Below are positions 1,645 to 54,107 of a stretch of 64,000 nucleotides of DNA, piece by piece; within the stretch, counting starts at the first letter, position 1, and each line of letters begins with the position of its first letter. The notes under the pieces are model-generated. The model had not been told where the DNA came from and ran no database searches. It saw only the letters and a program-made list of their open reading frames with translations. Source of the stretch: a virus. The DNA lies in UHGV virus genome UHGV-0112973; one strand, given 5' to 3'. A program made the translations under genes and the position numbers.

Positions 1645-2108
1645 TGCTTCAAATGCCAGATTTATTGTACTTCAATGGAAGTTGGCAAGAGTATATAGAC
1701 GATGTATATTATGTTGTCAGAGAAGACATTTTAATCTCTAATATAACGTTTAAGGGTCTCCCTGTTCGGTTACGTTATTCACCGGAATATGATGGGAAAG
1801 AGTTCGGATTTTGGCATTTAGTATCAGAGGGAAAAATAGAAGAAGAACGAATACCTGATCTTGAACGGTGTAAGCGGATCCGCTGGATCGCGCATATGAT
1901 AAGGAATTATAACCATTCCGATATATCATGTTGGTCTGAAAGACGAGGACCAACTGAAGAATGGGTAATCTGGAACGAGTGTGAAAACTACGTTGTTGTG
2001 CTATCCGCACGTAGAGACTATTGGCTTCTTAAAACAGCCTATGTTGTAACCTATAACAGTAAAATCAGAACACTCAAACAAAGCAGAAAAAGAGCGCTTG
2101 GGACATAA
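1644..2108 (+). CDS. hypothetical protein translationally coupled to the upstream DUF3800-like gene
   Basis: ATG at 1644 overlaps upstream TGA by 1 nt, GGGAGG RBS at 1631-1636; contains RIRWIAH (weak R-x5-H, HEPN-like). Confidence 0.5.
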   Translation: MLQMPDLLYFNGSWQEYIDDVYYVVREDILISNITFKGLPVRLRYSPEYDGKEFGFWHLVSEGKIEEERIPDLERCKRIRWIAHMIRNYNHSDISCWSERRGPTEEWVIWNECENYVVVLSARRDYWLLKTAYVVTYNSKIRTLKQSRKRALGT

Positions 2109-2115
2109 AAAAGCT

Positions 2116-2147
2116 GAACCCGACACATATTGCTATGTATCGGGTTC
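2116..2147 (+). terminator. imperfect hairpin downstream of the two-gene module
   Basis: gaacccgacacat...atgtatcgggttc inverted repeat; no strong U-tract. Confidence 0.3.
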
Positions 2148-2274
2148 GATCGCTCTTTCTACACATGGTAGATGAGTAAGGCAAATCTAACCGATCTACT
2201 TTAGCTTTTCAATAGCTAGCTATAACTTTCCGCACATATTCTTCTGATAATTCCAGTATGGCTGTTGGGTTTTC

Positions 2275-2571
2275 TTATGCTTTTCTGCGCAGAGGTGCAC
2301 ATTTATTCAGCAACAATAAATGTAATTCTTTGTTATTCCTAAGTATTTCGACACACCAATATCGTAACGTGTTCACTTCAAGTGTAGCCAGCACCTTATG
2401 TCGAAGTCCTCCCTCCCCTGCACATAACGATGACCGACATTCTGCTAAGGCACATAACCATGTATTGGCATCATAGAGAATCCAATAATGCTCCTCTGAA
2501 ATAGTTTTGCATCCAATTATTTCGAATCTTCGTTCTATCGTTTCAGGAGAGTATGAAAAATCAATTTCCAT
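2275..2571 (-). CDS. hypothetical protein (98 aa), possibly a gene remnant
   Basis: ORF track only; lies beyond the late-operon terminator; no domain recognised. Confidence 0.25.
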   Translation of the reverse strand: MEIDFSYSPETIERRFEIIGCKTISEEHYWILYDANTWLCALAECRSSLCAGEGGLRHKVLATLEVNTLRYWCVEILRNNKELHLLLLNKCAPLRRKA

Positions 2572-2612
2572 AATATGCTCAAAATTTCGCTATACCAGCA
2601 TAATTTAAGCAC

Positions 2613-2634
2613 AAAAAAAGCTCCCGCAGGAGCT
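2613..2634 (-). terminator. rho-independent terminator at the end of the minus-strand late operon
   Basis: agctcc-cgca-ggagct hairpin; on the minus strand it is followed by a run of U. Confidence 0.55.
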
Positions 2635-2655
2635 TTAAAATACAAGGGATGACTC

Positions 2656-3165
2656 TTAATCCCACTCAATCCAGTTGTAAACGATACGAAGTGACGGGCG
2701 CACAGCGGCAGTCACATCTTCGGTACTAAAGTCGATTGCATCACTGTAGATTTTGCAGTCCAACATTTCAATTGTTGTAGCAGCTTTTGTCACAGCGTTA
2801 ACCCCGGAAGATTTGGATTCAGGGGTCGCAGCCATCGTGATATCAACATAGTCCTTCGCCGCAATGCGATCCTTGATGAACTGAAGAATATCGCCTTCGA
2901 TAGTCTCCACGCACTGGACCTGGATTTCCCCAGAGTTTCGAATTGGTCCGTGCTGGTTGAACTTCACACCATTCGGACCATAGTCCTCCACATCCTCGCG
3001 GGTCATTTCAGGAATTTGCGACGTGCGAACCAGTACGCTGATATCTTCATGGCCTGCAAAAGTGAGCTGGAATTCAGAAGATACCAGTCGTTCGCCTTTG
3101 GCCGCGTTGGCAGTATAGCGGCCCTTAATAAATTTACGGTTTCCCTTAGTGTTATTGTGCCCCAT
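2656..3165 (-). CDS. phage structural protein (tail-associated, last gene of the late operon containing sheath and head genes)
   Basis: 169 aa ORF co-oriented and contiguous with sheath gene; assignment by synteny only. Confidence 0.45.
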   Translation of the reverse strand: MGHNNTKGNRKFIKGRYTANAAKGERLVSSEFQLTFAGHEDISVLVRTSQIPEMTREDVEDYGPNGVKFNQHGPIRNSGEIQVQCVETIEGDILQFIKDRIAAKDYVDITMAATPESKSSGVNAVTKAATTIEMLDCKIYSDAIDFSTEDVTAAVRPSLRIVYNWIEWD

Positions 3166-4618: not shown

Positions 4619-6208
4619 TTACTTAATAAGCAGCGGTACGCCCTGGATACGACGGGCTACGCCAGTCGGGCAGCAGGCCCAGACTACTTCCCATTTATCG
4701 AATTCCGCCTGCGTAACTTTCAGCACATACGGTTCTGTACCGTCAGCATCAGGATCACGAGGAGCCACCAGAGCGCCGGAGGCGACAAAGCGATCTAAAA
4801 GTTTGGTCATCCCTTTAGTCAGGCCAGCCGCAGTAATACCGTCCGGGCTATGCTTCATCTGTCGGGCTAACTGGACAAAGAAACGGCTGATTGCATTCAT
4901 CAGGGATGGGACGTGCTGGAAGTGCAGATAGTTATCCTGCGTGCAGCAAGTTAAAGCATCGTCGATGATCATCTGGCCAGAGGTGCCAACAGATACTTTA
5001 TTGAGACGGCCCTTGACCATTGCTTCTTCGTCCGGGGTATCTTCCGGATACAGCGGTTGAATTGACGCACGAGCAATGACGGCACGTTCTTCACCAGCCG
5101 GTGAGTAATGCCAACCGCCGACATCAGAGTTTTTCTTGACGCCACGAGCTTTCGCCGCATACGCCACGCCAGACAGACCAAAGACCACACGGGATTGGGT
5201 CCATTTGTCTTTGCAGGAGAACGGGTAGTGATAGACAGAACAGCTTACATAATCGGTACCAAGTAAACCGGTATCCTCAACAGCTGGTAGTGCTTCTGCG
5301 TACGTTAATGTCGGTTTGACATCAAAGAAGCCATCAATCAGGCGATCTGCACAGATTTTACCTAATGCGGTGATAGCCGCATTGTCATAGCAGCCCAGGC
5401 CAAGAACAGCGGTGTACATGTACGGCGCATTGTTCAGAACTTTCACCGCACGCAGGTACGTAGCGGTTGAGATTTTCGACTGATCGCCGTTGGTACCGCC
5501 AGTGAACGCCAACGATTTTTTGTTTGTTACTTTCGCTGTCGAAATCAGCTCTTCATTAACAACCGCGCGCAGATATTTAGAACGGGCTTCCAGAGCCGTA
5601 GGCAGATAACACAAGCGGCCCATGTCATCTTTCGCTTCTTCCGCCAAAGACACAGTGTGTGTCTCCAGGGTCGTTACCACGCCGAGCGAAGTCGTCTGGG
5701 TCAGTTTTAAGAGGAAGCGTTCATTACCCGCGCTGTCCGCTGTTGCCGTTTCGATGGTTAACTCACGGGTAGGTGAAATACACGGATCACCATCATCAAC
5801 GTAGATAGCAAAGGCTTCGCCACTATCAAGTTCAATTTCAGAACCGTATGGCAACGCACTGTAAGCCGGTTCGCCTGATTCATCGAACATAATAATCGGG
5901 AACTTCGCATCATCCGGAACAGCGCGAACAACGTAACCAGACGTTTGCTGAATAGCTTCGTACACATGACGAATTGGTTCGAACTGTGAGCCGGAAGACG
6001 GCTTCAGCGGTTCGCCGAGAACATCTTCGTAATTGGACTCAGTAACCGCCAGAACAGTAAACGGCTTGCCACGCGCAAATACGCCAATACCAGCCCACAA
6101 GCTGCTATTTAATGCAACACCGGTAGATAACGTCGCATCGGCATTGATCGGGCTAACCGCGACGCCGGATGCATTACCTAATGACTGTTGAATTGAATAT
6201 TGAGACAT
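4619..6208 (-). CDS. contractile tail sheath protein (P1 gene 22-like)
   Basis: 529 aa; sheath-like sequence and size; position next to head gene and parS as in P1. Confidence 0.75.
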   Translation of the reverse strand: MSQYSIQQSLGNASGVAVSPINADATLSTGVALNSSLWAGIGVFARGKPFTVLAVTESNYEDVLGEPLKPSSGSQFEPIRHVYEAIQQTSGYVVRAVPDDAKFPIIMFDESGEPAYSALPYGSEIELDSGEAFAIYVDDGDPCISPTRELTIETATADSAGNERFLLKLTQTTSLGVVTTLETHTVSLAEEAKDDMGRLCYLPTALEARSKYLRAVVNEELISTAKVTNKKSLAFTGGTNGDQSKISTATYLRAVKVLNNAPYMYTAVLGLGCYDNAAITALGKICADRLIDGFFDVKPTLTYAEALPAVEDTGLLGTDYVSCSVYHYPFSCKDKWTQSRVVFGLSGVAYAAKARGVKKNSDVGGWHYSPAGEERAVIARASIQPLYPEDTPDEEAMVKGRLNKVSVGTSGQMIIDDALTCCTQDNYLHFQHVPSLMNAISRFFVQLARQMKHSPDGITAAGLTKGMTKLLDRFVASGALVAPRDPDADGTEPYVLKVTQAEFDKWEVVWACCPTGVARRIQGVPLLIK

Positions 6209-6228
6209 AACTTTCCCTGTTATGCGCC

Positions 6229-6247
6229 CCGCACGGGGGCGCTATGT
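6229..6247. other. GC-rich hairpin between head and sheath genes
   Basis: gcgccccg-cac-gggggcgc inverted repeat. Confidence 0.4.
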
Positions 6248-6268
6248 TAAACGGAGAACTTCCCCTGA

Positions 6269-7996
6269 TTACTCAGAGTCACCGGCATCAATCGTGTCGC
6301 CGCTTATGAAGTTAAGCCCGCCTTTTTTGGCCATTGTCAGCGTTACACGAGTGAAGTAATCAGCGCCGTTGCGTGGGTGCATATCGTTGATAGCCGAACC
6401 CCACAGTATGGTACGGTTGACCAGCGCCGGAGTGGTCGGATGCTGGAACGGGATAGCCGGGACAGCATCACCAGTCACGAAGCCTGCTTTACCCGGATTT
6501 TCATCACGGACGTAGCACAGCACATCCATCGAGCTGAACTGAATGTTCTCTGTCGTTAAGTTCTTACAAATACCAGCAGGTACTTCGTACACTTTCACGT
6601 TACCGAACAGGGTACCGATGTAGTGAACATACGGAGTCTGGATATAGTCTTCGGCTGGCTGGAAGAAATCCTTCGGCAACTGTTTGAAGAAAGATGCTGC
6701 ATCAGCACCAGCAAACATCCCCATCGCACCAGAAGATTTAACGCGCTCAATAATGTCGCGATATACAGTCTGGAATTTGCCACGAATGATGGTTGCCCAT
6801 ACATCAAAGGACTGGTTAACCGGCAGAGCGATGTCAAAGGTGTCGGTCGCAAGAGTACGCCAGATCATGATGCGAAGACGCAGCATATCCTGTTCATGAG
6901 ACAGGTATTCCTTCAGGGTGCGGAACTGTAGGGAACCCAGGTCCAGACCAAATTCACGCTGTGCTTCATACGCCGCCTGTACCGTGTGCTCAGCCGCGAT
7001 AACGAACTGGCTTGGGAACAGGGTGTATTTCTTCATTTCGTGGTTGATCAGCGGGATCAGCTCAGGAGCGGCTTCAATATTGATTTCCGTCTCAATTGCG
7101 ATCTCAGTGCCTTTATCCGGCGCTTTGGAGAACGACAGGGCAATCTGACCAATGTTGTAGTTCAGAGAGCAGGTAACAGTGATTTGCTCACCAGCAGCAT
7201 TAGTAAACGAGTGAAGTAGGCTGCCGGAACCGTTATCAACAACAGACTTAATACGGTTAACGTAGATGTTAGTGCGACCTTTTCGGATTGGTACATTCTG
7301 GCCTTCGAAGTCTTCCATCTTGAAGGTTGCGGTTTTGCTGGTGCCATCGGAGCTTGCCACCAGCACATAGCGGCGGCGTAACTGGCTGTACACACCGACG
7401 GATTGCATGTCCAGAACATCACCAGCAGCATAAGAACCAAAAGAGGAACCTGCCACGTTAAAGACTTCATAGATGTCGGACTGGTCACGCGTAACCGGAA
7501 TGAAGGTACACGCATCAGCGGTAGCTGCCCCCAACTGAACAGGCAGGATCATCGCGAGGAATAAAGGCAGACGCATAACACCGTCAGAAACGCTCATCAT
7601 CTCTGCTGCGACGGATTCCAGCATCGCTTTATTAGTGGCATCCATGCTATTGCGGGTGGACTCAATCAGGCAGTTTTCCAGCGTCTGGTGGCAGGAGGCC
7701 AGAATTTCCGGACGCGGCATAGATTTATGTGCTGCGGCGTAGTCAGCCAGTGCACTTGCCCACGCTGTAGCGATTTGAGCGGTGGCATTATCAGAGATAC
7801 CCGCAAAAACCGGGTCTTTACGTGCAGCTTCAAGGATAGATGCGGCACGCGCGGCATCATCTTTAATGAATTGGTTATCAGTACCGAACTGCGCAGTGCT
7901 TGCCCAGCCAAGCACAGCTTTAGAGCGTTTTGCGATATCTGCAATACGATTCTGGTATTCGCGTAAGTTACTCAATTTACTCTTCCTTAAACACAA
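6269..7996 (-). CDS. major head protein (P1 gene 23-like)
   Basis: 575 aa ORF directly adjacent to parS as in P1; assignment by size and synteny. Confidence 0.6.
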   Translation of the reverse strand: MCLRKSKLSNLREYQNRIADIAKRSKAVLGWASTAQFGTDNQFIKDDAARAASILEAARKDPVFAGISDNATAQIATAWASALADYAAAHKSMPRPEILASCHQTLENCLIESTRNSMDATNKAMLESVAAEMMSVSDGVMRLPLFLAMILPVQLGAATADACTFIPVTRDQSDIYEVFNVAGSSFGSYAAGDVLDMQSVGVYSQLRRRYVLVASSDGTSKTATFKMEDFEGQNVPIRKGRTNIYVNRIKSVVDNGSGSLLHSFTNAAGEQITVTCSLNYNIGQIALSFSKAPDKGTEIAIETEINIEAAPELIPLINHEMKKYTLFPSQFVIAAEHTVQAAYEAQREFGLDLGSLQFRTLKEYLSHEQDMLRLRIMIWRTLATDTFDIALPVNQSFDVWATIIRGKFQTVYRDIIERVKSSGAMGMFAGADAASFFKQLPKDFFQPAEDYIQTPYVHYIGTLFGNVKVYEVPAGICKNLTTENIQFSSMDVLCYVRDENPGKAGFVTGDAVPAIPFQHPTTPALVNRTILWGSAINDMHPRNGADYFTRVTLTMAKKGGLNFISGDTIDAGDSE

Positions 7997-19300: not shown

Positions 19301-19647
19301 GGTCTGAGTTTGTATGCGGTGATTTTGCAGCGGTGATTGAAGCTGCCGGAGAAGGAGATGTCATCTTTTGCGATCCGCCGTATGAACCGCTTCCAAATAC
19401 AGAGGGATTCACGAACTATTCCGGTCATGACTTTAAGTTTGAAGAGCAAAAACGCCTGGTGTCTCTGTTGACGGATGCTCATCGTCGAGGTGCAAAGGTT
19501 CTCATTACTAACAGTGGCGCGCCAAACATCAGAGAGCTTTATCATGACAGTGGCTTCAGAGTGGAACCTCTTTTTGCCAGACGTTCTGTGTCTTGTAAGG
19601 GGGACACTCGAGGTGTAGCTCATGACGTTTTAGGTATATTGCTCTAA
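16360..19647 (+). CDS. dmt: bifunctional DNA methyltransferase Dmt (N-terminal C5-cytosine MTase, C-terminal Dam-like N6-adenine MTase), interrupted in frame by an intein
   Basis: GTG start overlapping hrdC stop; C5 motifs (GGTP/CQAFS, ENVPG, QRRRRVF) and Dam motifs (FKWAGGK, DPPY); 1095 aa = 754 + 341. Confidence 0.9.
16591..17613 (+). other. intein (341 aa) with LAGLIDADG homing-endonuclease domain, inserted at the catalytic Cys of the PCQ motif
   Basis: Starts Cys (CFTAGHMV...), block [18 protein letters not shown] and [10 protein letters not shown] motifs, ends ...NGAVVHN followed by Cys; removal restores GGTPCQAFS. Confidence 0.85.
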
Positions 19648-19654
19648 TAAATTT
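19638..19654 (+). promoter_or_regulatory. C1 operator overlapping the dmt stop codon
   Basis: ATTGCTCTAATAAATTT exact to remembered consensus; part of palindrome CTAATAAATTTATTAG. Confidence 0.55.
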
Positions 19655-19828
19655 ATTAGTGTAATATCGCCTCAATGAATCGTGATTTATAGAGCGATTT
19701 AGCTGTTAGCCGCGACAGGCGCGGCGGTAAGCATGGCTGGGCCTAGTCCTCCCAGACAAACCACCGAGTTGCCAGGTTGACCATGCGCCTAAGTGGCAAC
19801 GCCGAAGTGCGTTACGAGCTTCCAGTTT

Positions 19829-35326: not shown

Positions 35327-35833
35327 TTGAGTATTTTCAATAAACACGCACACCAGGAACGTCCGTATATCGTCATAGTCGATATTGATGGAACAATATC
35401 AGAGGCAACTGAAGACAGACTGCATTTGCTTCCGCCACTAGGTAAAGGTGCATTAACAAAGGACTGGAACGAGTTTAATCTCGCCTGTGACACCGATACT
35501 CCCATCACTCCAGTTATTGATATGGTGCGCCAGTTATTTAACGTTTACACGGTCTGGTTTGTAACCGGGCGCTGTGAGATCGCAAGGGATAAAACACGAG
35601 TCTGGCTGCGGAAGTACGTAACAAACGGGGCTGAGCCTTTGCTATCTATGCGTCCTGCCACCGATGACAGAAATGACGGCCCAGCAAAGATTGATCTCCT
35701 TAAGAAAATTGGTCTAAGTAAAATCGCGTTCGCGCTGGAAGATAAGATTGAAGTGGCGCGTGTTTTCAGGAGGCACGGCGTGCTTACGTTAATGGTCAGG
35801 GAGTATGAAAATGCGCTTCTTCATCAACAATAA
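35327..35833 (+). CDS. HAD-superfamily phosphatase-like protein (P1 pap position)
   Basis: VIVDIDGT motif I. Confidence 0.6.
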   Translation: MSIFNKHAHQERPYIVIVDIDGTISEATEDRLHLLPPLGKGALTKDWNEFNLACDTDTPITPVIDMVRQLFNVYTVWFVTGRCEIARDKTRVWLRKYVTNGAEPLLSMRPATDDRNDGPAKIDLLKKIGLSKIAFALEDKIEVARVFRRHGVLTLMVREYENALLHQQ

Positions 35834-35849
35834 TTGCTCTAATAAATCT
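35833..35849 (+). promoter_or_regulatory. C1-operator-like site
   Basis: ATTGCTCTAATAAATCT. Confidence 0.45.
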
Positions 35850-36027: not shown

Positions 36028-36606
36028 ATGAAAGGCGAAGTGAAAGAGCGCGGCATGATTTTCAACGATGAGATGGTCCGGGCAATTCTTGGCGGGAATA
36101 AAACACAGACTCGCAGGATTGTTGAAGAAAAATTCTATGGACGGGCAGTGGCCGCAGAGTTGCTTGCTAAGCATTGTCCATATGGTCAACCGGGCGATCG
36201 TATTTGGGTTCGCGAAACCTACCGGGTACATGGCAAAGCGACGGACGTCGCAACGCTGGTTTATCGCGCAAGCGTGCGTAACTCCTGGACAGAACAAACG
36301 CACCGGGTTCCGGTCGAGGTTTGTAATAAACCAGTATCAGAAAAGTGGACGCCATCAATTCACATGCCGCGCTGGGCATCGCGCATTCTTCTGGAAATTA
36401 CCGACGTGCGTGTGGAACGGCTGCGTGATATGAGCGAGGCAGATGCTAAAGCAGAAGGCGCATCTCCGGCGATGTACAAAATTACGCCGCCGGAAGCTGT
36501 TTATCGCGTTGGTTTTGGTGATATCTGGCGCAGTATTTACGGGCAGGATAACTGGCTATCTAACCCGTGGGTATGGGTAATCGAGTTTAAGCGCATTCAG
36601 GAATAA
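36028..36606 (+). CDS. hypothetical protein
   Basis: 192 aa ORF with GGGGGATG upstream. Confidence 0.5.
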   Translation: MKGEVKERGMIFNDEMVRAILGGNKTQTRRIVEEKFYGRAVAAELLAKHCPYGQPGDRIWVRETYRVHGKATDVATLVYRASVRNSWTEQTHRVPVEVCNKPVSEKWTPSIHMPRWASRILLEITDVRVERLRDMSEADAKAEGASPAMYKITPPEAVYRVGFGDIWRSIYGQDNWLSNPWVWVIEFKRIQE

Positions 36607-37848: not shown

Positions 37849-38058
37849 ATGGCTATTGCCGCAAGTTACACCATGCATCTCTATTGTGACTGCCGCCAGT
37901 GTACGGAAGGTGTATATCCAGTGCCAGACTTCGGTGAGTATATCGGTACGTCATGGTCTGGTTGTGCAAAAGAGGCGCGCAAGGATGGCTGGCGAATAAG
38001 CAAAGACAAAACGCGTGCTTTTGCGCCCGGGCATAAAGTTTTGAGGATTAACAAATGA
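37849..38058 (+). CDS. small Cys-rich protein
   Basis: 69 aa from ATG with AAAGGAGAG RBS. Confidence 0.45.
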   Translation: MAIAASYTMHLYCDCRQCTEGVYPVPDFGEYIGTSWSGCAKEARKDGWRISKDKTRAFAPGHKVLRINK

Positions 38059-38897
38059 CCACTATTACCAAAGAGCGACTGCTGACAATCAAGCAGTGGC
38101 GCGAAACATACGGACCTGGTAGCAACGTTGTACTGCCAGCAGAAGAAGCGGAAGAACTGGCACGGATTGCTCTGGCAGCGCTGGAAGCTGAACCTGTTCT
38201 GTATCAGTCCTGCACTCGCCCCACTTGGAATAGCGGTGTTCCGTGGACGGAATGGAAAGAACGTAGTCGTGAGGGCTACGAAAACGATTTGCGCTTTACA
38301 GACACGCCTGACCATGCCGGTTGGATAAACAAATGCCGAAAACTATATACCACTCCGCCAGTTCCTGTAATACAGGCTGATGTCGCGCAGGCAATTGAAA
38401 AACTCAAACGGAAATTAGTGGAATGCAATCGCTATAACTACTGCGCAGATGCAGTTAAGGGCGTTGAGTATGCCTGCCACGCTGCCATGCTTCAGGGTAG
38501 CCAACCTGTAAGCCAAACTTACAAGTTTCCAGTTAATACACCTTGCCAGGATGCGCCAGCCCATATCTGGCTGCAAACAGCTGGAGTATGGCCAGAAGAT
38601 GGCGAGTTAAGCGAATTAACGTGGTGCAGCCACAATCAGCACCATGATGACACGCTATATGTTCGAGCTGACCTTGTGAATGGCAACTATCCGGTAACTC
38701 CGGATGGTTGGATAAGCTGTAGTGAGCGAATGCCCGCTCAAGATGATTGGATTTTAATTTATTCAAAGCACGGTGAGTATATGGCAGGACAGGTGCAAGG
38801 GGAATACGTGGAGTTGAGCGACGGCACTTTATCGTGGTTAGGGAACGCCTTGTTCTGGATGCTGCTACCAGAACCTCCCCAGGAGGCAGGTCAATGA
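38055..38897 (+). CDS. hypothetical protein with DUF551-like C-terminal region
   Basis: 280 aa; ...WISCSERMPAQDDWILIYSKHGEYMAG... Confidence 0.5.
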   Translation: MTTITKERLLTIKQWRETYGPGSNVVLPAEEAEELARIALAALEAEPVLYQSCTRPTWNSGVPWTEWKERSREGYENDLRFTDTPDHAGWINKCRKLYTTPPVPVIQADVAQAIEKLKRKLVECNRYNYCADAVKGVEYACHAAMLQGSQPVSQTYKFPVNTPCQDAPAHIWLQTAGVWPEDGELSELTWCSHNQHHDDTLYVRADLVNGNYPVTPDGWISCSERMPAQDDWILIYSKHGEYMAGQVQGEYVELSDGTLSWLGNALFWMLLPEPPQEAGQ

Positions 38898-38961
38898 GCT
38901 GGCCTGAAGCATTCGCAACGGTAGGAATTGTGATGGCGGCAGCACTGGGTTTGTATTCAAT

Positions 38962-39213
38962 TTGTCGCTGGTGGTAACGATGGGGAAATTAACTTTTGTA
39001 GTCGAATTTGAGGATGGTAAAGAGCCACCTGTTAGCGCCAATCTTGATGTTGCTGGTGGCAGGCTTGTTTCGGTTCTATTTGGTGACTACCGAGATGACT
39101 TCTTCCAACCAGAAGAAGTTGATGTAGTGCGAGAGGCATTAAACGAGTTAAGTGTTGACAACGATGATGCTCATGCGGAAATCATCGAAAAAATGGAACT
39201 GCTAACTCACTAA
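38962..39213 (+). CDS. small acidic protein
   Basis: 83 aa ORF. Confidence 0.45.
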   Translation: MSLVVTMGKLTFVVEFEDGKEPPVSANLDVAGGRLVSVLFGDYRDDFFQPEEVDVVREALNELSVDNDDAHAEIIEKMELLTH

Positions 39214-39261
39214 ATTAGAAATTATGGTGCTATCACCTACGGCAACGAGAGAAATTTTATA

Positions 39262-39384
39262 ATGTCAAAAGTAAATGTTTTGATTTTTTCAGTAATTGTA
39301 GGTTTTGGTTTTTCTGCTGGAGTGCATATTTATATTACGTGGGGAAAAATCATCAACTACGTATGGAGTTGTTTTATTAAGTGA
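39262..39384 (+). CDS. candidate 40-aa hydrophobic peptide (absent from ORF track)
   Basis: GAGAG RBS then MSKVNVLIFSVIVGFGFSAGVHIYITWGKIINYVWSCFIK. Confidence 0.3.
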   Translation: MSKVNVLIFSVIVGFGFSAGVHIYITWGKIINYVWSCFIK

Positions 39385-39391
39385 GGTAAGT

Positions 39392-39685
39392 ATGTGGAGA
39401 GGTAATAGTCATGGCAAAAGCCAGATGATACTTACCGAATATCAGTTTGACCATAAAACCAATAAATCACGTTCAGTATATTTGCTTCGGCACAATAGCC
39501 GCGTAAGGAATACCGTGCTGGAGCAAAATCTGACTGTTGAAATGGATAATTACGGGGGCTTCAAGCCAACAATTTCGCTTGATGATTTTCCTCGTGGTTT
39601 AAGCGAAAGAGAAGCAATGCTGAAATTAGCAGAATGGCTACAAAGATTAAGCATTGCTATTGAAGATAACTGGTCTGAACCTTAA
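39392..39685 (+). CDS. hypothetical protein (97 aa)
   Basis: ATG with GAGGTAAG RBS; in frame with track ORF 39305..39685. Confidence 0.45.
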   Translation: MWRGNSHGKSQMILTEYQFDHKTNKSRSVYLLRHNSRVRNTVLEQNLTVEMDNYGGFKPTISLDDFPRGLSEREAMLKLAEWLQRLSIAIEDNWSEP

Positions 39686-39691
39686 ATTTAT

Positions 39692-40066
39692 ATGATGACA
39701 CTAAAACATTTTCTTGACCGCCCATTATGGGCGGCAGCCGCAGGCTATGACTTTAATTATATGGATTGCATGTCTTATACCGCCAATGCATACGACCATT
39801 CCTTCAGTCTGCTGTTTAATTCTTTAAGAATATTGCCGCAAACAGAAGTTGGAGAGCTTCATTTATGGCTATTGGGCTTTATCGCGGCTGGAGTTGGTAT
39901 TGCTGTATGGCCTTTTATTTTCTGGCTGGTGGCTGTTGTAGTGTGGTTTAAGTGCAAGACGTACCGGAAAAAGTATTTCTTAGGTGATGGAATGACTGAT
40001 ATTGCCAAAATGAACATTGAAAAATGGACTAAGGAATGTGAAAAGAAATGGCGCAAAAAGAAATGA
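39692..40066 (+). CDS. small inner-membrane protein
   Basis: 124 aa; two TM helices, basic C-terminal tail. Confidence 0.5.
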   Translation: MMTLKHFLDRPLWAAAAGYDFNYMDCMSYTANAYDHSFSLLFNSLRILPQTEVGELHLWLLGFIAAGVGIAVWPFIFWLVAVVVWFKCKTYRKKYFLGDGMTDIAKMNIEKWTKECEKKWRKKK

Positions 40067-40707
40067 CTACTCTAACGACAGCATACTTACAGCAATTGGT
40101 ATTTTTTGCAGGCGAGGCTACTTGTCATCCTGACGCAAACTATTTATTGGAATTTGAGAGGTTAGCGTCACCCGGTATCGTTCTGGAACTGGCCCAACAG
40201 GTGCTGGCCTTAAGACAAAAAGAGCAACATGAAAGTAATACGTGTAGATTGAACTTTGAGCAGTGGCTGGAACAGCAACGCGGAAAAATCGATGTGGACT
40301 GTGGTTGTGTGTCTACTGAAACATTCATGCACTGGCTGCGGGTAGCTTACGAGGCTGGCAACTATCCGGATATTCCGGATAGTTCGGTGCCAGGGCCAGG
40401 AAAGGGCGTCACCGGTGAACGTATCCGCATTAAGCCGCATGTTTATCGCGAACTGGTTAACCGTCTCCACGATACAGCGATCAAGTGTGCTGGCACCCAG
40501 CAATTACGAGAAAGAATTAGCCGTGTTTTGGGCGACGTTATTAAGCCAGACCATCATAAACAAGCCGAGAAAAGTGGCCTGGAAAGGTGTCACCTTGAGG
40601 CGGCATTAAACATTAACCCGGGGCATACGCTTGGCATTATTGATGCACTATTGGTTCATAAGATGGCCAGGGCTTTATTGCCGCTGGTAGGGGGCAATGA
40701 CAACTAG
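40048..40707 (+). CDS. hypothetical protein
   Basis: 219 aa ORF. Confidence 0.45.
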   Translation: MAQKEMTTLTTAYLQQLVFFAGEATCHPDANYLLEFERLASPGIVLELAQQVLALRQKEQHESNTCRLNFEQWLEQQRGKIDVDCGCVSTETFMHWLRVAYEAGNYPDIPDSSVPGPGKGVTGERIRIKPHVYRELVNRLHDTAIKCAGTQQLRERISRVLGDVIKPDHHKQAEKSGLERCHLEAALNINPGHTLGIIDALLVHKMARALLPLVGGNDN

Positions 40708-40791
40708 GAAAAAATCGCATTACTGGTGGCAAAGCCATAACTACTGATACAATATTTCTAGGTTAAAGATCTGGCATTAGGTAGAGATAGC

Positions 40792-41256
40792 ATGTTTCTT
40801 CATATCAATCCCGATTGGGCATCAGCTATTGCGGCATTTGGGTCAGCAATAGCTGCTTTTATTAGTTTGCGCACAAGTAAAAATCTTGGATTATTCGATA
40901 AGGAAAAATTTTATAGTGAAGCATTGATAAACTTTGCTGATAGGGCAAATAAAATAGCAACAGGAAAAGCTGGATCAGACTGGGATGTTAATGACGCAAG
41001 TAATATAATTCTTTCACTAAATGCCGCAAAAGAAACTATTGAAAGTGCGCCAAAACCTATTCGAGAGAAACTAAAACAATATTACAAACATAATCTTTGC
41101 CATGAGATCATAACTGAATTAGAGGCTCACTCTCCCCCAGATTCAGTAATTGTAAGAGAACCATCAGAGTATGAAGGCAAGATCATGGGATTGTGGGATG
41201 AGATTAAAATATTTCTGGGTTATACAGTGGTATCAGAAGCAGACCTTGAAGATTAA
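40792..41256 (+). CDS. AT-rich membrane-anchored protein immediately upstream of phd-doc
   Basis: 154 aa; N-terminal TM helix; about 37 percent GC. Confidence 0.5.
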   Translation: MFLHINPDWASAIAAFGSAIAAFISLRTSKNLGLFDKEKFYSEALINFADRANKIATGKAGSDWDVNDASNIILSLNAAKETIESAPKPIREKLKQYYKHNLCHEIITELEAHSPPDSVIVREPSEYEGKIMGLWDEIKIFLGYTVVSEADLED

Positions 41257-41339
41257 AGTTTGGTGTGACCACATCATTTCATCAATGATGCCCGAAGTGG
41301 GGAGTTTGACGATTGTCCGGTGATTTAAGCTGCAAAGTG

Positions 41340-41398
41340 CTGGTGCTTTATGCTTGTGAAGTTTATAATTGTGTACACATAACGAGTACACGAGGTGT
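41340..41398 (+). promoter_or_regulatory. phd-doc promoter/operator
   Basis: TATAAT at about 41365 followed by GTGTACAC / GAGTACAC palindromic half-sites. Confidence 0.55.
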
Positions 41399-41400
41399 TT

Positions 41401-41622
41401 ATGCAATCCATTAACTTCCGTACCGCGCGCGGCAACCTTAGCGAAGTGCTCAATAATGTTGAAGCAGGGGAAGAGGTTGAAATCACCCGCAGAGGCCGTG
41501 AGCCAGCAGTAATTGTCAGCAAGGCTACTTTTGAAACCTACAAAAAAGCGGCGCTGGATGCTGAATTTGCATCCCTGTTTGACACCCTGGACTCCACCAA
41601 CAAGGAACTGGTTAACCGATAA
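41401..41622 (+). CDS. phd: antitoxin Phd
   Basis: [41 protein letters not shown]... recognised as P1 Phd. Confidence 0.95.
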
Positions 41623-42002
41623 TGAGGCATATATCACCGGAAGAACTTATTGCGCTTCATGATGCGAATATAAACCGCTACGGCGGCCTGCCGGGAATGT
41701 CAGATCCGGGTAGGGCTGAGGCCATTATCGGGAGAGTTCAGGCCAGAGTTGCCTACGAAGAGATCACCGACCTTTTCGAAGTCTCCGCCACCTACCTGGT
41801 GGCTACAGCGAGAGGGCATATATTCAATGATGCCAATAAGCGTACCGCGCTAAACAGTGCGCTGCTATTTCTACGCCGTAACGGGGTGCAGGTATTTGAT
41901 TCACCAGAACTGGCAGACCTTACCGTAGGGGCTGCGACCGGAGAGATATCTGTATCTACTGTCGCCGCCACGTTACGTAGATTGTATGGTTCTGCGGAGT
42001 AG
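41622..42002 (+). CDS. doc: toxin Doc (Fic-fold kinase)
   Basis: 126 aa recognised as P1 Doc; start overlaps phd stop. Confidence 0.95.
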
Positions 42003-42006
42003 ATTA

Positions 42007-42186
42007 ATGGCACGTAAATACAACAAATTGTCCCGTAGAGCGTTAAAGATGCTTCTTGATGGCGTGAGTCGCCGCGAGGTAAAGCAATACCTGGTTGGTA
42101 AGCAAATTGGTGCCAGGACCGCTATTGCTGTGTTATGCCGTCAGGAAATGGTTGTGCTTAAACAGAAAATGCCGGGCAGCAGATAA
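42007..42186 (+). CDS. small basic protein after doc
   Basis: 59 aa from MARKYNKL... Confidence 0.4.
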   Translation: MARKYNKLSRRALKMLLDGVSRREVKQYLVGKQIGARTAIAVLCRQEMVVLKQKMPGSR

Positions 42187-42213
42187 AGCCAAATCAGTGA
42201 TGAAAGGTGTGAT

Positions 42214-52469: not shown

Positions 52470-52658
52470 TAAATATATTATTTTTAATGATAAATGATTG
52501 ACAACTGACAAGTGACTTCAGTCAGAATCATCACATGCCCGGTACGGATGGATCCCTTTTCAAATATTCCATGGACGGCACAGTCTGAGTACCGGGCGCT
52601 ACCTTCAGTTGTATTGCTAAGCCGCCGCTGGTGGCTTTTCTTTTTTGTAGGGGGCGCT

Positions 52659-53300
52659 ATGGATAAGAAAATATGCGTTGTTTCGATGAGCGTCGGCAAA
52701 CCGGCGTCAATGACTGCTGCATGGATCAATAACGAGCTGATAATGGCTGAGCGGACCAGCTACCCTGAACGCCGCCGCGATATGGAACTCCAGCTGCTGC
52801 GCGAATTGCGAGAAAAAGAGGAAAAGGGTTTTATCGTGCTGGTGGAAGAGGAAAACAGCTTTATTACTGGTCGAGTTGGCCAGCGTGTAAGGTTGCGCGA
52901 TCCCTTCATGAACGGCAGGCCGGTACTGATTGAAGCAATGCAGATTTACAAGGAGCTGGAACGCCAGAAAGCGATCAAGTTACCGCGCAAGGAATCCGGC
53001 AAATACATCCTCCACCAAAGCATCTTCGATTCCGAACACGATAAAAAAGGCGATGAATTTTTCAACATCAACTGGAGCGAAATAACGACAGAGCATGTTC
53101 TGACGTTACTATGTTGCTTTGCGACGGAATACAACAACGTTGCCAGCGCCGACTACATCAGGGCAATGGCTGGAGAAGTTGAAGCCCGCCAGGAACCATC
53201 GTTACTAAGTCCACTTATTAACATAATTCTGGGTACCCAGACACTGGAACAAAAAAAAGTGCCGAAAGGGGTATTAACAGGCAAGCATAATTATTTCTAA
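52659..53300 (+). CDS. hypothetical protein at P1 mat position (start set at MDKKICVV)
   Basis: 213 aa; synteny between ref and the res-mod slot. Confidence 0.45.
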   Translation: MDKKICVVSMSVGKPASMTAAWINNELIMAERTSYPERRRDMELQLLRELREKEEKGFIVLVEEENSFITGRVGQRVRLRDPFMNGRPVLIEAMQIYKELERQKAIKLPRKESGKYILHQSIFDSEHDKKGDEFFNINWSEITTEHVLTLLCCFATEYNNVASADYIRAMAGEVEARQEPSLLSPLINIILGTQTLEQKKVPKGVLTGKHNYF

Positions 53301-53498: not shown

Positions 53499-54107
53499 AT
53501 GTCTAATACCTCGGCAAATGAAATTGTACCGCACTTACCGCTAATTTTCGAAAATGAAGCTAATGGGATTCTTCAGGATCTGGCCTATACTCCATCGCTT
53601 ATGGGGTTGATGATGTTCCCGACAGAAGAGGAGCTGAAAGCAGCGAGAAGCTACATAATTAACGTTTTTGAAGAGTGTTACCGAGCCGGTCATTTGCGCA
53701 TTATGGGCTTTACTAATGAAGAAAACTTGTTCGGATACGCCTTAATCTTCGGACATCCATCGGGAAATTTTCCGTTGTACTGTCATAAAATATATGTATA
53801 TGAGCAATATCGTGGTAATGGACTTGGAAGTAATATACTGGCAGAAATACTTGCATTTCCAAATGAGGTCGCTTTGATTTGCCAGTCTGATTTGGTTCCT
53901 TTTTATGAATCAGCCGGAATGCACTTTAAAGGAAATTACACCACTCCATCAGTCGCCAATTTCAAAAAAACTCGCGGCATGTATGAGGGGCTTTGTTTGA
54001 TGAGCACTGAAAAAAATGCAAACTCTAATGGTGTACCTATATTCATGCTGAACGATAACGATATTGATAACATCATACAGGCTATCGCATCATCGGCACC
54101 ACGATAA
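53499..54107 (+). CDS. GNAT-family N-acetyltransferase (lone, AT-rich) at the position of P1 res-mod
   Basis: 202 aa; acetyl-CoA motif A EQYRGNGLGSNIL; AT-rich upstream region. Confidence 0.65.
   Translation: MSNTSANEIVPHLPLIFENEANGILQDLAYTPSLMGLMMFPTEEELKAARSYIINVFEECYRAGHLRIMGFTNEENLFGYALIFGHPSGNFPLYCHKIYVYEQYRGNGLGSNILAEILAFPNEVALICQSDLVPFYESAGMHFKGNYTTPSVANFKKTRGMYEGLCLMSTEKNANSNGVPIFMLNDNDIDNIIQAIASSAPR

Follow-up and report, generated by a model that had tools for sequence, protein, structure and literature searches.

A probable two-piece accessory segment upstream of phd-doc in a P1-like phage-plasmid

Which genes fill the 2 kb directly upstream of the phd-doc addiction module in a P1-like phage-plasmid, and is their position next to this module functionally meaningful? 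The window considered here (the whole stretch of DNA analysed, 64,000 nt in length) is, judging from its sequence, a P1-like phage-plasmid; its interval 39000-41400 is 100% identical to the E. coli plasmid pS51_2 and to other non-mobilizable E. coli plasmids of 93-99 kb. The original prediction described this place as an AT-rich cluster of five open reading frames for small membrane proteins, differing from the gene set of the reference P1, and proposed that such proteins may act as exclusion or abortive-infection factors. All five reading frames were indeed found on the + strand immediately upstream of phd, and the comparison with P1 genes confirmed that the block is not the gene set of the reference phage. 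The features relevant to the discussion below are as follows.

35833..35849, + strand: C1 repressor operator, ATTGCTCTAATAAATCT, identical to P1 OpmgT (Op88), at the start of a predicted C1-controlled operon running into the block
36028..36606, + strand: 192-aa PmgT homologue, first gene of this operon (44% identity, tblastn with residues 1-232 of P1 PmgT)
38980..39213, + strand: 77-aa acidic soluble protein (phrog_3876), encoded directly upstream of the block
39262..39384, + strand: 40-aa peptide (phrog_5525) with one hydrophobic helix, GC 0.30
39392..39685, + strand: 97-aa soluble protein (phrog_1258), starting 7 nt past the stop codon of the 40-aa frame
39692..40066, + strand: 124-aa membrane protein (phrog_2638), according to hydropathy and family comparison
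40048..40707, + strand: 219-aa soluble protein, its gene overlapping the 124-aa gene by 19 nt, GC 0.483
40689..41257, + strand: AT-rich cassette of 569 bp, GC ~0.37, delimited by junction alignments and the annotation of a typical plasmid
40726..40753, + strand: sigma-70 promoter-like site (GTGGCA, 16-nt spacer, TG-TACAAT), a 9-of-12 consensus match in the 84-nt gap before the 154-aa gene
40792..41256, + strand: 154-aa protein (phrog_1779) with a predicted Ala-rich N-terminal membrane anchor, a domain predicted to be cytoplasmic and composed of helices only, and a D-L-x-D motif in its acidic C-terminus
41258..41328, + strand: 3' stub of humD, its last ~70 nt (71 nt) with a 1-nt indel, encoding ...INDARSGEFDDCPVI and the stop codon
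41341..41369, + strand: intact Pphd promoter, one substitution in comparison with the Pphd sequence of P1
41401..42002, + strand: phd (41401-41622) and doc (41622-42002), the conserved right flank, 98.6% and 97.6% identical to P1 Phd and Doc

The gene order of P1 is kept on both flanks of the block, which lies between pap/OpmgT and the conserved phd-doc-pdcA-pdcB-lpa genes; pap and pmgS are located upstream, and phd, doc, and pdcA downstream, the latter three with 95-99% identity. In P1-like elements, the stretch pmgT-pmgU-pmgV-upfM/N/O-hot-lxr-humD constitutes one of eight highly variable regions, and low G+C is associated with such regions (PMC9603915); all P1 genes tested from pmgT to doc are non-essential (PMC10695390). 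The block is the right-hand part of this already described hypervariable, non-essential accessory segment, termed “variable region 8” (pmgT...humD; PMC9603915), which it resembles in position, low G+C, dispensability of the genes, and a content differing among collinear plasmids. In contrast to the described region, the variant in the window lacks pmgV, upfM/N/O, hot, and lxr, and humD is represented by the stub only. Gene content of the region varies across annotated, otherwise collinear P1-like plasmids; depending on the phage or plasmid compared, the megablast alignment is interrupted at 39386, 40347, 40688, or 41259, and the mosaic breakpoints coincide with gene boundaries. The segment would consist of two unrelated pieces, one comprising the genes for the 40-, 97-, 124-, and 219-aa proteins and the other being the 569-bp cassette with the 154-aa gene. 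We consider this structural and evolutionary account, with the cassette replacing hot and humD, highly probable. Such an arrangement is ordinary phage mosaicism, routine for phage-plasmids.

The composition of the block fits the association with low G+C, the 219-aa gene being an exception. GC of the interval 39240-41256 is 0.411 vs. 0.480 for the entire window, which is within the lowest 2.3% of 2-kb windows, and the compositionally foreign character of the block was borne out by the GC profile. The proposed AT-richness holds for the block as a whole; it does not hold uniformly, since low GC is concentrated in two patches: the genes for the 40-, 97-, 124-, and 154-aa proteins have GC of 0.30, 0.40, 0.405, and 0.363, respectively, whereas the 219-aa gene is normal (0.483). 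At the same time, three other patches of the window are equally low in GC or lower.

The four genes of the left piece are closely packed, with gaps of 7 and 6 nt followed by a 19-nt overlap, and no promoter or terminator was predicted among them. Because of this spacing and the lack of consensus signals between the genes, they probably share a transcript with the Ea22-like and DUF551 genes that precede them, starting at PpmgT, a promoter repressed by C1. Being located 3' of an operator identical to OpmgT, the four genes are therefore expected to be off in the lysogen, whereas a lysogen-protecting factor would have to be expressed there. They may represent early-lytic accessory genes similar to those of the ea and nin regions of lambdoid phages and of N15. 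Neither a LexA box nor a P1 late-promoter -22 box was found within the block; no Rfam family was detected at E <= 1 on either strand of 38500-42200, and no tRNA gene was found. This set of genes is the common natural version of the region: the left block, at least in part, is present in 333 of 5,426 complete E. coli genomes, where 339 of the 344 places are on plasmids.

The smallest of these reading frames, encoding the 40-aa peptide, is missing from the RefSeq annotation of pS51_2, which includes the other four. Still, it looks like a real gene by sequence conservation: the peptide matches phrog_5525 end to end (E 8e-21), the frame is intact in five diverged plasmids, and homologues with 44-47% identity reside beside ea22/eaa genes in lambdoid phages. 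Over its full length, the 97-aa protein shares 55% identity with gp44 of phage N15, and it has further homologues in phiKO2, P22-like phages, mEp235, and HK225. Like the 97-aa gene, the gene for gp44 is part of an accessory operon of a phage-plasmid that belongs to the early genes; the neighbour genes are different. N15 gp45, considered as a partner of the 124-aa protein, shows no similarity to it. In the latter protein, the N-terminal 26 residues are highly conserved, and the basic C-terminal tail bears a conserved W..ECEKKW motif. The 124-aa protein is hydrophobic as proposed, but the two transmembrane segments ascribed to it are not clear: its hydrophobicity is confined to one stretch of 31 residues (aa 57-87), either a long membrane-spanning helix or a tightly folded hairpin. 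In Proteus phages, ~6 kb separate the homologues of the 97- and 124-aa genes, and these lie on opposite strands; the two genes therefore do not constitute a fixed two-gene module. More generally, the designation “small membrane proteins” is appropriate for the 40-, 124-, and 154-aa proteins, in which hydropathy analysis reveals hydrophobic segments, and not for the 97- and 219-aa proteins, in which there are none.

The right piece, the AT-rich cassette, takes the slot which in typical P1-like plasmids harbors a 94-aa gene, a reverse-strand 116-aa gene, hot, and most of humD. Homology to humD-type plasmids ends at ~40688 and restarts at 41258, inside humD. The predicted absence of humD next to phd was thereby confirmed: only its last 17 codons (HumD residues 113-129, 94% identical) remain at 41275-41325, and the reading frame of the S24 domain is not intact. 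Likewise, tblastn yielded no match to hot, lxr, pmgV, or upfM/N/O in the whole window (at E <= 1e-3 for Hot). Presumably, the cassette replaced hot, humD, and the two small genes preceding hot by illegitimate recombination, leaving the 3' stub of humD. No flanking repeats of note were found around the cassette, hence nothing points to an IS element or to site-specific insertion. The repair proteins Hot (a homologue of the Pol III theta subunit) and HumD (a UmuD' homologue) occupy the same slot just upstream of Pphd in P1 and most P1-like plasmids, and both are unrelated to the 154-aa replacement protein. The cassette itself is rare, being found in 9 of 72,556 plasmids and 10 of 5,426 E. coli genomes and never in a chromosome; rare, too, is the arrangement of the 154-aa gene followed by phd (10 genomes vs. 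486 with an intact humD-phd junction). It is a clean natural case of cargo replacement beside a conserved addiction module.

The cassette has a single-gene, moron-like layout, displaying two features of morons, namely presence or absence between collinear genomes and a deviant composition (GC ~0.37). The full definition of a moron would include a promoter and a terminator of its own; in the window, no terminator was found 3' of the 154-aa gene. The promoter-like site in front of the gene, with an extended -10 element, is a consensus match only, and such sites are no more numerous in the region than in shuffled sequence. Similar to lambda SieB and RexB and to morons in general, the 154-aa gene is short, AT-rich, and stand-alone, encodes a predicted membrane protein, lies between conserved genes, and is present in some close relatives and absent from others. 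The likeness ends at this level, however: the SieB and RexB profiles align to the 154-aa family with hhalign probabilities of 0.3% and 0.1%, respectively, i.e., without sequence or profile similarity.

Homologues of the 154-aa protein form a small family: 1.84 billion proteins contain only 21 clusters of them at 50% identity. Their genes always stand alone in accessory slots of lambdoid prophages, namely in the nin region or distally in the pL operon. The homologue of a Cronobacter prophage has a locally AT-rich composition, and an intrinsic terminator comes after it. The hydrophobic N-terminal helix is conserved in the family, with K/R on its C-terminal side only; it is weakly hydrophobic in the window, with a Kyte-Doolittle score over 19 residues of 1.49, vs. 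1.6-2.5 in most homologues. The single-sequence AlphaFold model of the protein was useless (pLDDT 43), while the model built on the family alignment was all-helical with a pLDDT of 86.7. By prediction, a short N-out/C-in helix holds the protein in the inner membrane, with a helical bundle on the cytoplasmic side. No relatives by sequence or fold were detected outside the family; all 21 members produced scattered single weak matches to Pfam only. A sequence search of PDB with the 97-, 124-, and 219-aa proteins and the profile of the 154-aa family returned no match. No description of the cassette was found in the literature searched, and nothing relevant was found in the literature on phages carrying the closest homologue.

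Do these genes protect the lysogen? Comparison of the five block proteins and their neighbours with Pfam and NCBIfam gave nothing at or near the threshold. In PHROGs, each protein falls in a family, and every family is annotated as “unknown function”. With the HMMs of PADLOC-DB 2.0, none of the seven proteins tested matched any family at E <= 1. At the same time, PADLOC did find PDC-M04 A and B at 940-2108 of the same window; detection of this candidate system shows that the search works on this DNA. As far as these profiles reach, the block proteins match no known defence, exclusion, or other named family. The original suggestion of exclusion or abortive-infection factors tied to phd-doc thus found no support, given the absence of matches and the location of four of the genes behind the C1 operator. 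Proximity to phd-doc is incidental, since the same slot is filled by hot and humD in 486 genomes and by the cassette in 10.

In its broadest form, the exclusion reading would turn the whole block into an island of small membrane proteins functionally linked to phd-doc. It draws on the hydrophobic segments in three of the five products, on the AT-richness of the block and its variability between elements, and on the location of a 154-aa homologue near the PD-lambda-1 defence gene of phage PhiR26_1. We regard it as unlikely: the negative profile searches were accompanied by a working PDC-M04 control, the 97- and 219-aa proteins are soluble, the four genes lacking a predicted internal promoter are expected to be off in the lysogen, the neighbour of phd-doc varies (many other plasmids carry phd-doc without humD), and the dispersed, oppositely oriented 97- and 124-aa homologues of Proteus phages do not suggest a fixed module. 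An exclusion role is conceivable for the 154-aa protein only. The best guess, a tentative one, is that this protein acts at the membrane against incoming competing phages. It is somewhat doubtful that, together with its ~20 relatives, it represents a new kind of inner-membrane factor that brings about exclusion or abortive infection as a single gene, a moron in the accessory hot spots of lambdoid prophages and, rarely, of P1-like plasmids, where it would have displaced the SOS-repair genes hot and humD. To a comparable degree it is possible, though not probable, that the 154-aa protein serves the lytic cycle of the phage (in host take-over, anti-defence, or the timing of membrane events or lysis) and is expressed by read-through of the early operon. 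The lambdoid homologues lie on the same strand inside the early operons of pL (N-cIII-kil-recT...) or pR-nin, and in the window the gene points in the same direction as the C1-controlled operon preceding it, with no terminator in between. However, the upstream gaps of 84-235 nt and the downstream terminator in relatives suggest an independent transcription unit, the rare and patchy occurrence of the gene is that of dispensable cargo, and the protein lacks similarity to known anti-defence or lysis proteins.

Two further explanations seem very improbable. The 40-aa peptide could be a type I toxin-like, membrane-depolarising toxin of the Hok, TisB, or Ibs kind controlled by an antisense RNA, with which its size, single hydrophobic helix, GC of 0.30, and missing annotation are compatible. 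Yet the lack of Rfam hits in 38500-42200 means that no known antisense or toxin RNA is encoded there on either strand, although an antisense RNA of an undescribed type is conceivable, and the two nearby antisense consensus promoters are 9-of-12 matches that lie downstream of the frame and are not enriched. In addition, a stop codon 7 nt before the next start in an operon is typical of an ordinary co-translated small protein, and the homologues of the peptide belong to ea gene arrays of lambdoid phages. Similarly hard to credit is the view of the five reading frames as decaying remnants or chance frames without function, despite the dispensability of the region in P1 (PMC10695390), the several truncated or frameshifted genes of the region in RefSeq annotations of neighbouring plasmids, and the presence of the humD stub. 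Every frame has a full-length PHROG match (for the 219-aa protein, over the PmgU half), the 97-aa protein retains its 55% identity to N15 gp44, the 124- and 154-aa families keep their motifs across members only 30-60% identical, and 333 E. coli genomes have kept the left block. The preferred account remains that of a two-piece accessory segment, and nothing in the current evidence lifts the block above routine phage-plasmid mosaicism. It supplies a short list of small genes as candidates for phage-phage competition phenotypes.

The 219-aa gene links the left piece with the reference P1. Orthology to P1 genes of the same position with P1-like composition, which had been named as evidence against a foreign block, was found only for the C-terminal half of this protein: its residues 114-219 correspond to P1 PmgU (YP_006562, “putative morphogenetic function”) with 88.7% identity over 106 of 111 residues, at a normal GC. 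In P1, PmgU is annotated from an internal GTG and overlaps the out-of-frame tail of pmgT, whereas in the window it is a part of the longer frame; residues 232-308 of P1 PmgT match 40346-40576 of the window, out of frame with the 219-aa gene. The reference P1 looks like a shortened derivative in which the 219-aa gene has been reduced to its 3' half, known there as pmgU. By parsimony, this looks like a deletion in P1 rather than an insertion in the window, and the overlapping pmgT/pmgU pair of P1 is suggested to be a recombination scar. The genes of laboratory P1 are not typical of the region, the block with the 40-, 97-, 124-, and 219-aa genes being present in ~6% of complete E. coli genomes. 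The N-terminal domain of PmgT, common to P1 and the window, is only 44% identical between them, so more than one event separates the two.

The interval 39240-41256 belongs to a region of known kind, namely variable region 8 of P1-like phage-plasmids. Over 39000-41400, the sequence shows 100% identity with E. coli plasmid pS51_2 (NZ_CP015997) and with four further non-mobilizable plasmids (93-99 kb); P1, P7, D6, RCS47, SJ46 and over 1,200 plasmid records match it in part. The flanks follow the P1 order, with pmgS and pap upstream and phd, doc, pdcA, pdcB and lpa downstream (the latter at 95-99% protein identity). Judged by these matches and by the gene order of the flanks, the window is a P1-like phage-plasmid. 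Inside the region, the synteny with P1 holds only in part: PmgU corresponds to residues 114-219 of the 219-aa protein (88.7% identity, tblastn), whereas hot, lxr, pmgV and upfM/N/O have no tblastn match in the whole window, and only residues 113-129 of HumD are encoded. The lack of humD, noted in the original prediction, was therefore borne out. The genes pmgT-pmgU-pmgV-upfM/N/O-hot-lxr-humD form one of eight highly variable regions in PMC9603915, where low G+C is also associated with variable regions of P1-like plasmids; the same point has been made for low-G+C hot spots (PMC6906374). In P1-like phage-plasmids, ~30% of genes have recently recombined (PMC10879196); in a CRISPRi survey of P1, all tested genes from pmgT to doc were non-essential (PMC10695390). 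The cargo variant found here is rare and was not found described in the literature searched.

The five ORFs proposed for the interval were all found at their predicted positions, listed here with neighboring features:

35833-35849: C1 operator, same sequence as P1 OpmgT
36028-36606 (+): 192-aa gene, PmgT-N homologue
39262-39384 (+): 40-aa ORF, GC 0.30
39392-39685 (+): 97-aa ORF, GC 0.40
39692-40066 (+): 124-aa ORF, GC 0.405
40048-40707 (+): 219-aa ORF, GC 0.483
40689-41257: 569-bp cassette, GC ~0.37
40792-41256 (+): 154-aa ORF, GC 0.363
41275-41325: remnant encoding HumD residues 113-129

The RefSeq annotation of the identical plasmid includes four of the five, leaving out the 40-aa ORF. The latter was accepted as a gene, since it aligns with phrog_5525 over the full length, has stayed intact in five diverged plasmids and has homologues (44-47% identity) adjoining ea22/eaa genes in lambdoid phages. 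Overall, the observation of an AT-rich cluster of small membrane proteins is real but overstated. The interval is indeed AT-rich (GC 0.411 vs 0.480 for the window, among the lowest 2.3% of 2-kb windows), but not uniformly: there are two low-GC patches, at 39.0-40.0 and 40.7-41.3 kb, separated by the 219-aa gene of normal composition. Likewise, the hydropathy profiles indicate a single transmembrane helix for the 40-aa peptide, one hydrophobic stretch of 31 residues for the 124-aa protein and an Ala-rich N-terminal helix for the 154-aa protein, but no hydrophobic segment for the 97- and 219-aa proteins.

All genes from the C1 operator to 40707 lie on the plus strand, in the order PmgT-N homologue, two small ORFs, an Ead/Ea22-like gene (Pfam match 1e-18), DUF551, a 77-aa ORF and then the 40-, 97-, 124- and 219-aa genes (the left piece), the last four being spaced by gaps of 7 and 6 nt and a 19-nt overlap. 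From 35850 up to where the 124-aa gene begins, a consensus scan detected no plus-strand promoter; in the rest of the left piece there is a single 9-of-12 match, inside the 219-aa ORF, and the only terminator-like element is a weak 5-bp stem near the 3' end of that ORF. This layout is consistent with transcription of the left genes from the C1-repressed PpmgT promoter, so they would be early-lytic and silent in the lysogen. In the whole window, thirteen matches to the C1 operator consensus with at most three mismatches were recorded (15093, 19638/19649, 30067, 33691/33740, 35833, 43259, 46565, 49209, 49673/49756 and 61606) vs 0.3 expected by chance, including a bivalent overlapping pair at 19638-19665. 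The DUF551 ORF (38055-38897, +) is 280 aa long, only a 136-aa protein being annotated in RefSeq pS51_2; since it and the 219-aa protein both match phrog_60 and phrog_924, the two share mosaic modules.

At least a part of the left piece is present in 333 of 5,426 complete E. coli genomes (covered by at least 80% in 217 of these), with 339 of its 344 places on plasmids. It is the form in which the region commonly occurs in nature, not a peculiarity of this plasmid. In comparisons with other elements, its mosaic breakpoints (39386, 40347 and 40688) coincide with gene boundaries. N15 gp44 shares 55% identity with the 97-aa protein, which has further relatives in phiKO2, P22-like phages, mEp235 and HK225. 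Members of the small 124-aa family share a strongly conserved N-terminus (MLTLKHFLDRPLWAAAAGYDFNYMDC) and a conserved basic tail (W..ECEKKW); their hydrophobic core varies. No relative of the left-piece proteins was found in Pfam, NCBIfam, PADLOC or PDB.

Comparison of window 36028-36606 and 40346-40707 with the P1 locus (1989-3058 of the extracted sequence) bears on the overlapping pmgT/pmgU of reference P1. PmgT residues 1-232 match the separate 192-aa gene (44% identity), while residues 232-308 match 40346-40576 (89.6% identity) in another frame than the 219-aa ORF; PmgU corresponds to the C-terminal half of the 219-aa gene. Because the two parts of PmgT match two separate genes, the second out of frame, the overlap looks like a deletion/fusion scar: the upstream gene would have been joined to the middle of a 219-aa-like gene, with the loss of ~3.7 kb still present in the window.

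In typical plasmids (pMB5646_3), the 219-aa-type gene is followed by a 94-aa gene, a reverse-strand 116-aa gene, hot and humD. In alignments, homology to such plasmids stops at ~40688 and resumes at 41258 with a 1-nt indel, ~70 nt upstream of the end of humD, and Pphd is intact; the cassette between these breakpoints is therefore a replacement rather than a simple insertion. Searches of 72,556 plasmids and 5,426 E. coli genomes recovered it from only 9 and 10, respectively, always on P1-like plasmids (identity at least 98.9%) and never on chromosomes; the intact humD-phd junction is found in 486 genomes. No repeats flank the cassette. An extended -10 promoter-like site (40726-40753) lies in its 84-nt leader, although the region shows no excess of such matches; downstream of the 154-aa gene, no terminator was found in the window. 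The gene may be transcribed autonomously. A humD-phd probe matches many E. coli plasmids of 88-141 kb only from about the humD end onward; these carry phd-doc without humD, so this boundary (about 41258-41340) is a recurrent recombination junction.

The 154-aa family comprises only 21 clusters in 1.84 billion representative proteins (exhaustive HMMER scan); a profile search adds a few relatives, all "hypothetical" and, where named, all from Enterobacterales. Its members keep the N-terminal hydrophobic helix, with 0-1 basic residues before and 2-5 after it, a pattern that fits a predicted N-out/C-in anchor, along with the motifs RAN, DW, ANI, PD and an acidic C-terminal D-L-x-D. The AlphaFold model from the family alignment is all-helical and confident (pLDDT 86.7). 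Lambda SieB and RexB were considered as relatives, but hhalign shows no relationship. The homologues always occupy accessory slots of lambdoid prophages as lone genes: in PhiR26_1 within the nin region, flanked by ren/PD-lambda-1/Rha and ybcN; between replication or methylase genes and RusA/Q; in the distal pL operon of Cronobacter between recT/DUF1382 and xis/int; or, in a Serratia prophage, beside a theta (Hot-like) fragment. With no neighbour gene conserved across these loci, the 154-aa gene is a one-gene module. In Cronobacter, the homologue has a locally AT-rich composition and an intrinsic terminator behind it, the classic moron layout. In the Serratia prophage locus (5765-6501), the 38-aa DNA polymerase III theta fragment lies directly upstream of the homologue, so theta genes and the 154-aa family share accessory neighborhoods outside P1 as well.

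Beyond the established region identity, replacement event, distribution of both pieces and family-level membrane-anchor signature, there is no current evidence for the locus as a defense or exclusion site. The original prediction of exclusion or abortive-infection factors is disfavored for the four left genes, since they are expected to be off in the lysogen, two of their products are soluble and their relatives reside in early operons of other temperate phages. For the 154-aa protein, a membrane-level block or an abortive response to other phages is a tentative guess of fairly low probability. That it serves the phage's own lytic programme is slightly less likely; the rest of the expectation goes to something else or to nothing measurable.

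Other low-GC patches were observed in the window. At 53499-54107 (+; GC ~0.36-0.37), a 202-aa GNAT-family acetyltransferase is encoded, preceded by an ORF (52512-53300) with no family match. The lowest-GC patch (940-2108, +; ~0.34) adjoins an IS1 InsB fragment (22-399) and contains a 234-aa ORF (DUF3800) that overlaps one of 159 aa, the two matching components A (1.2e-95) and B (9e-52) of the PADLOC candidate defense system PDC-M04.
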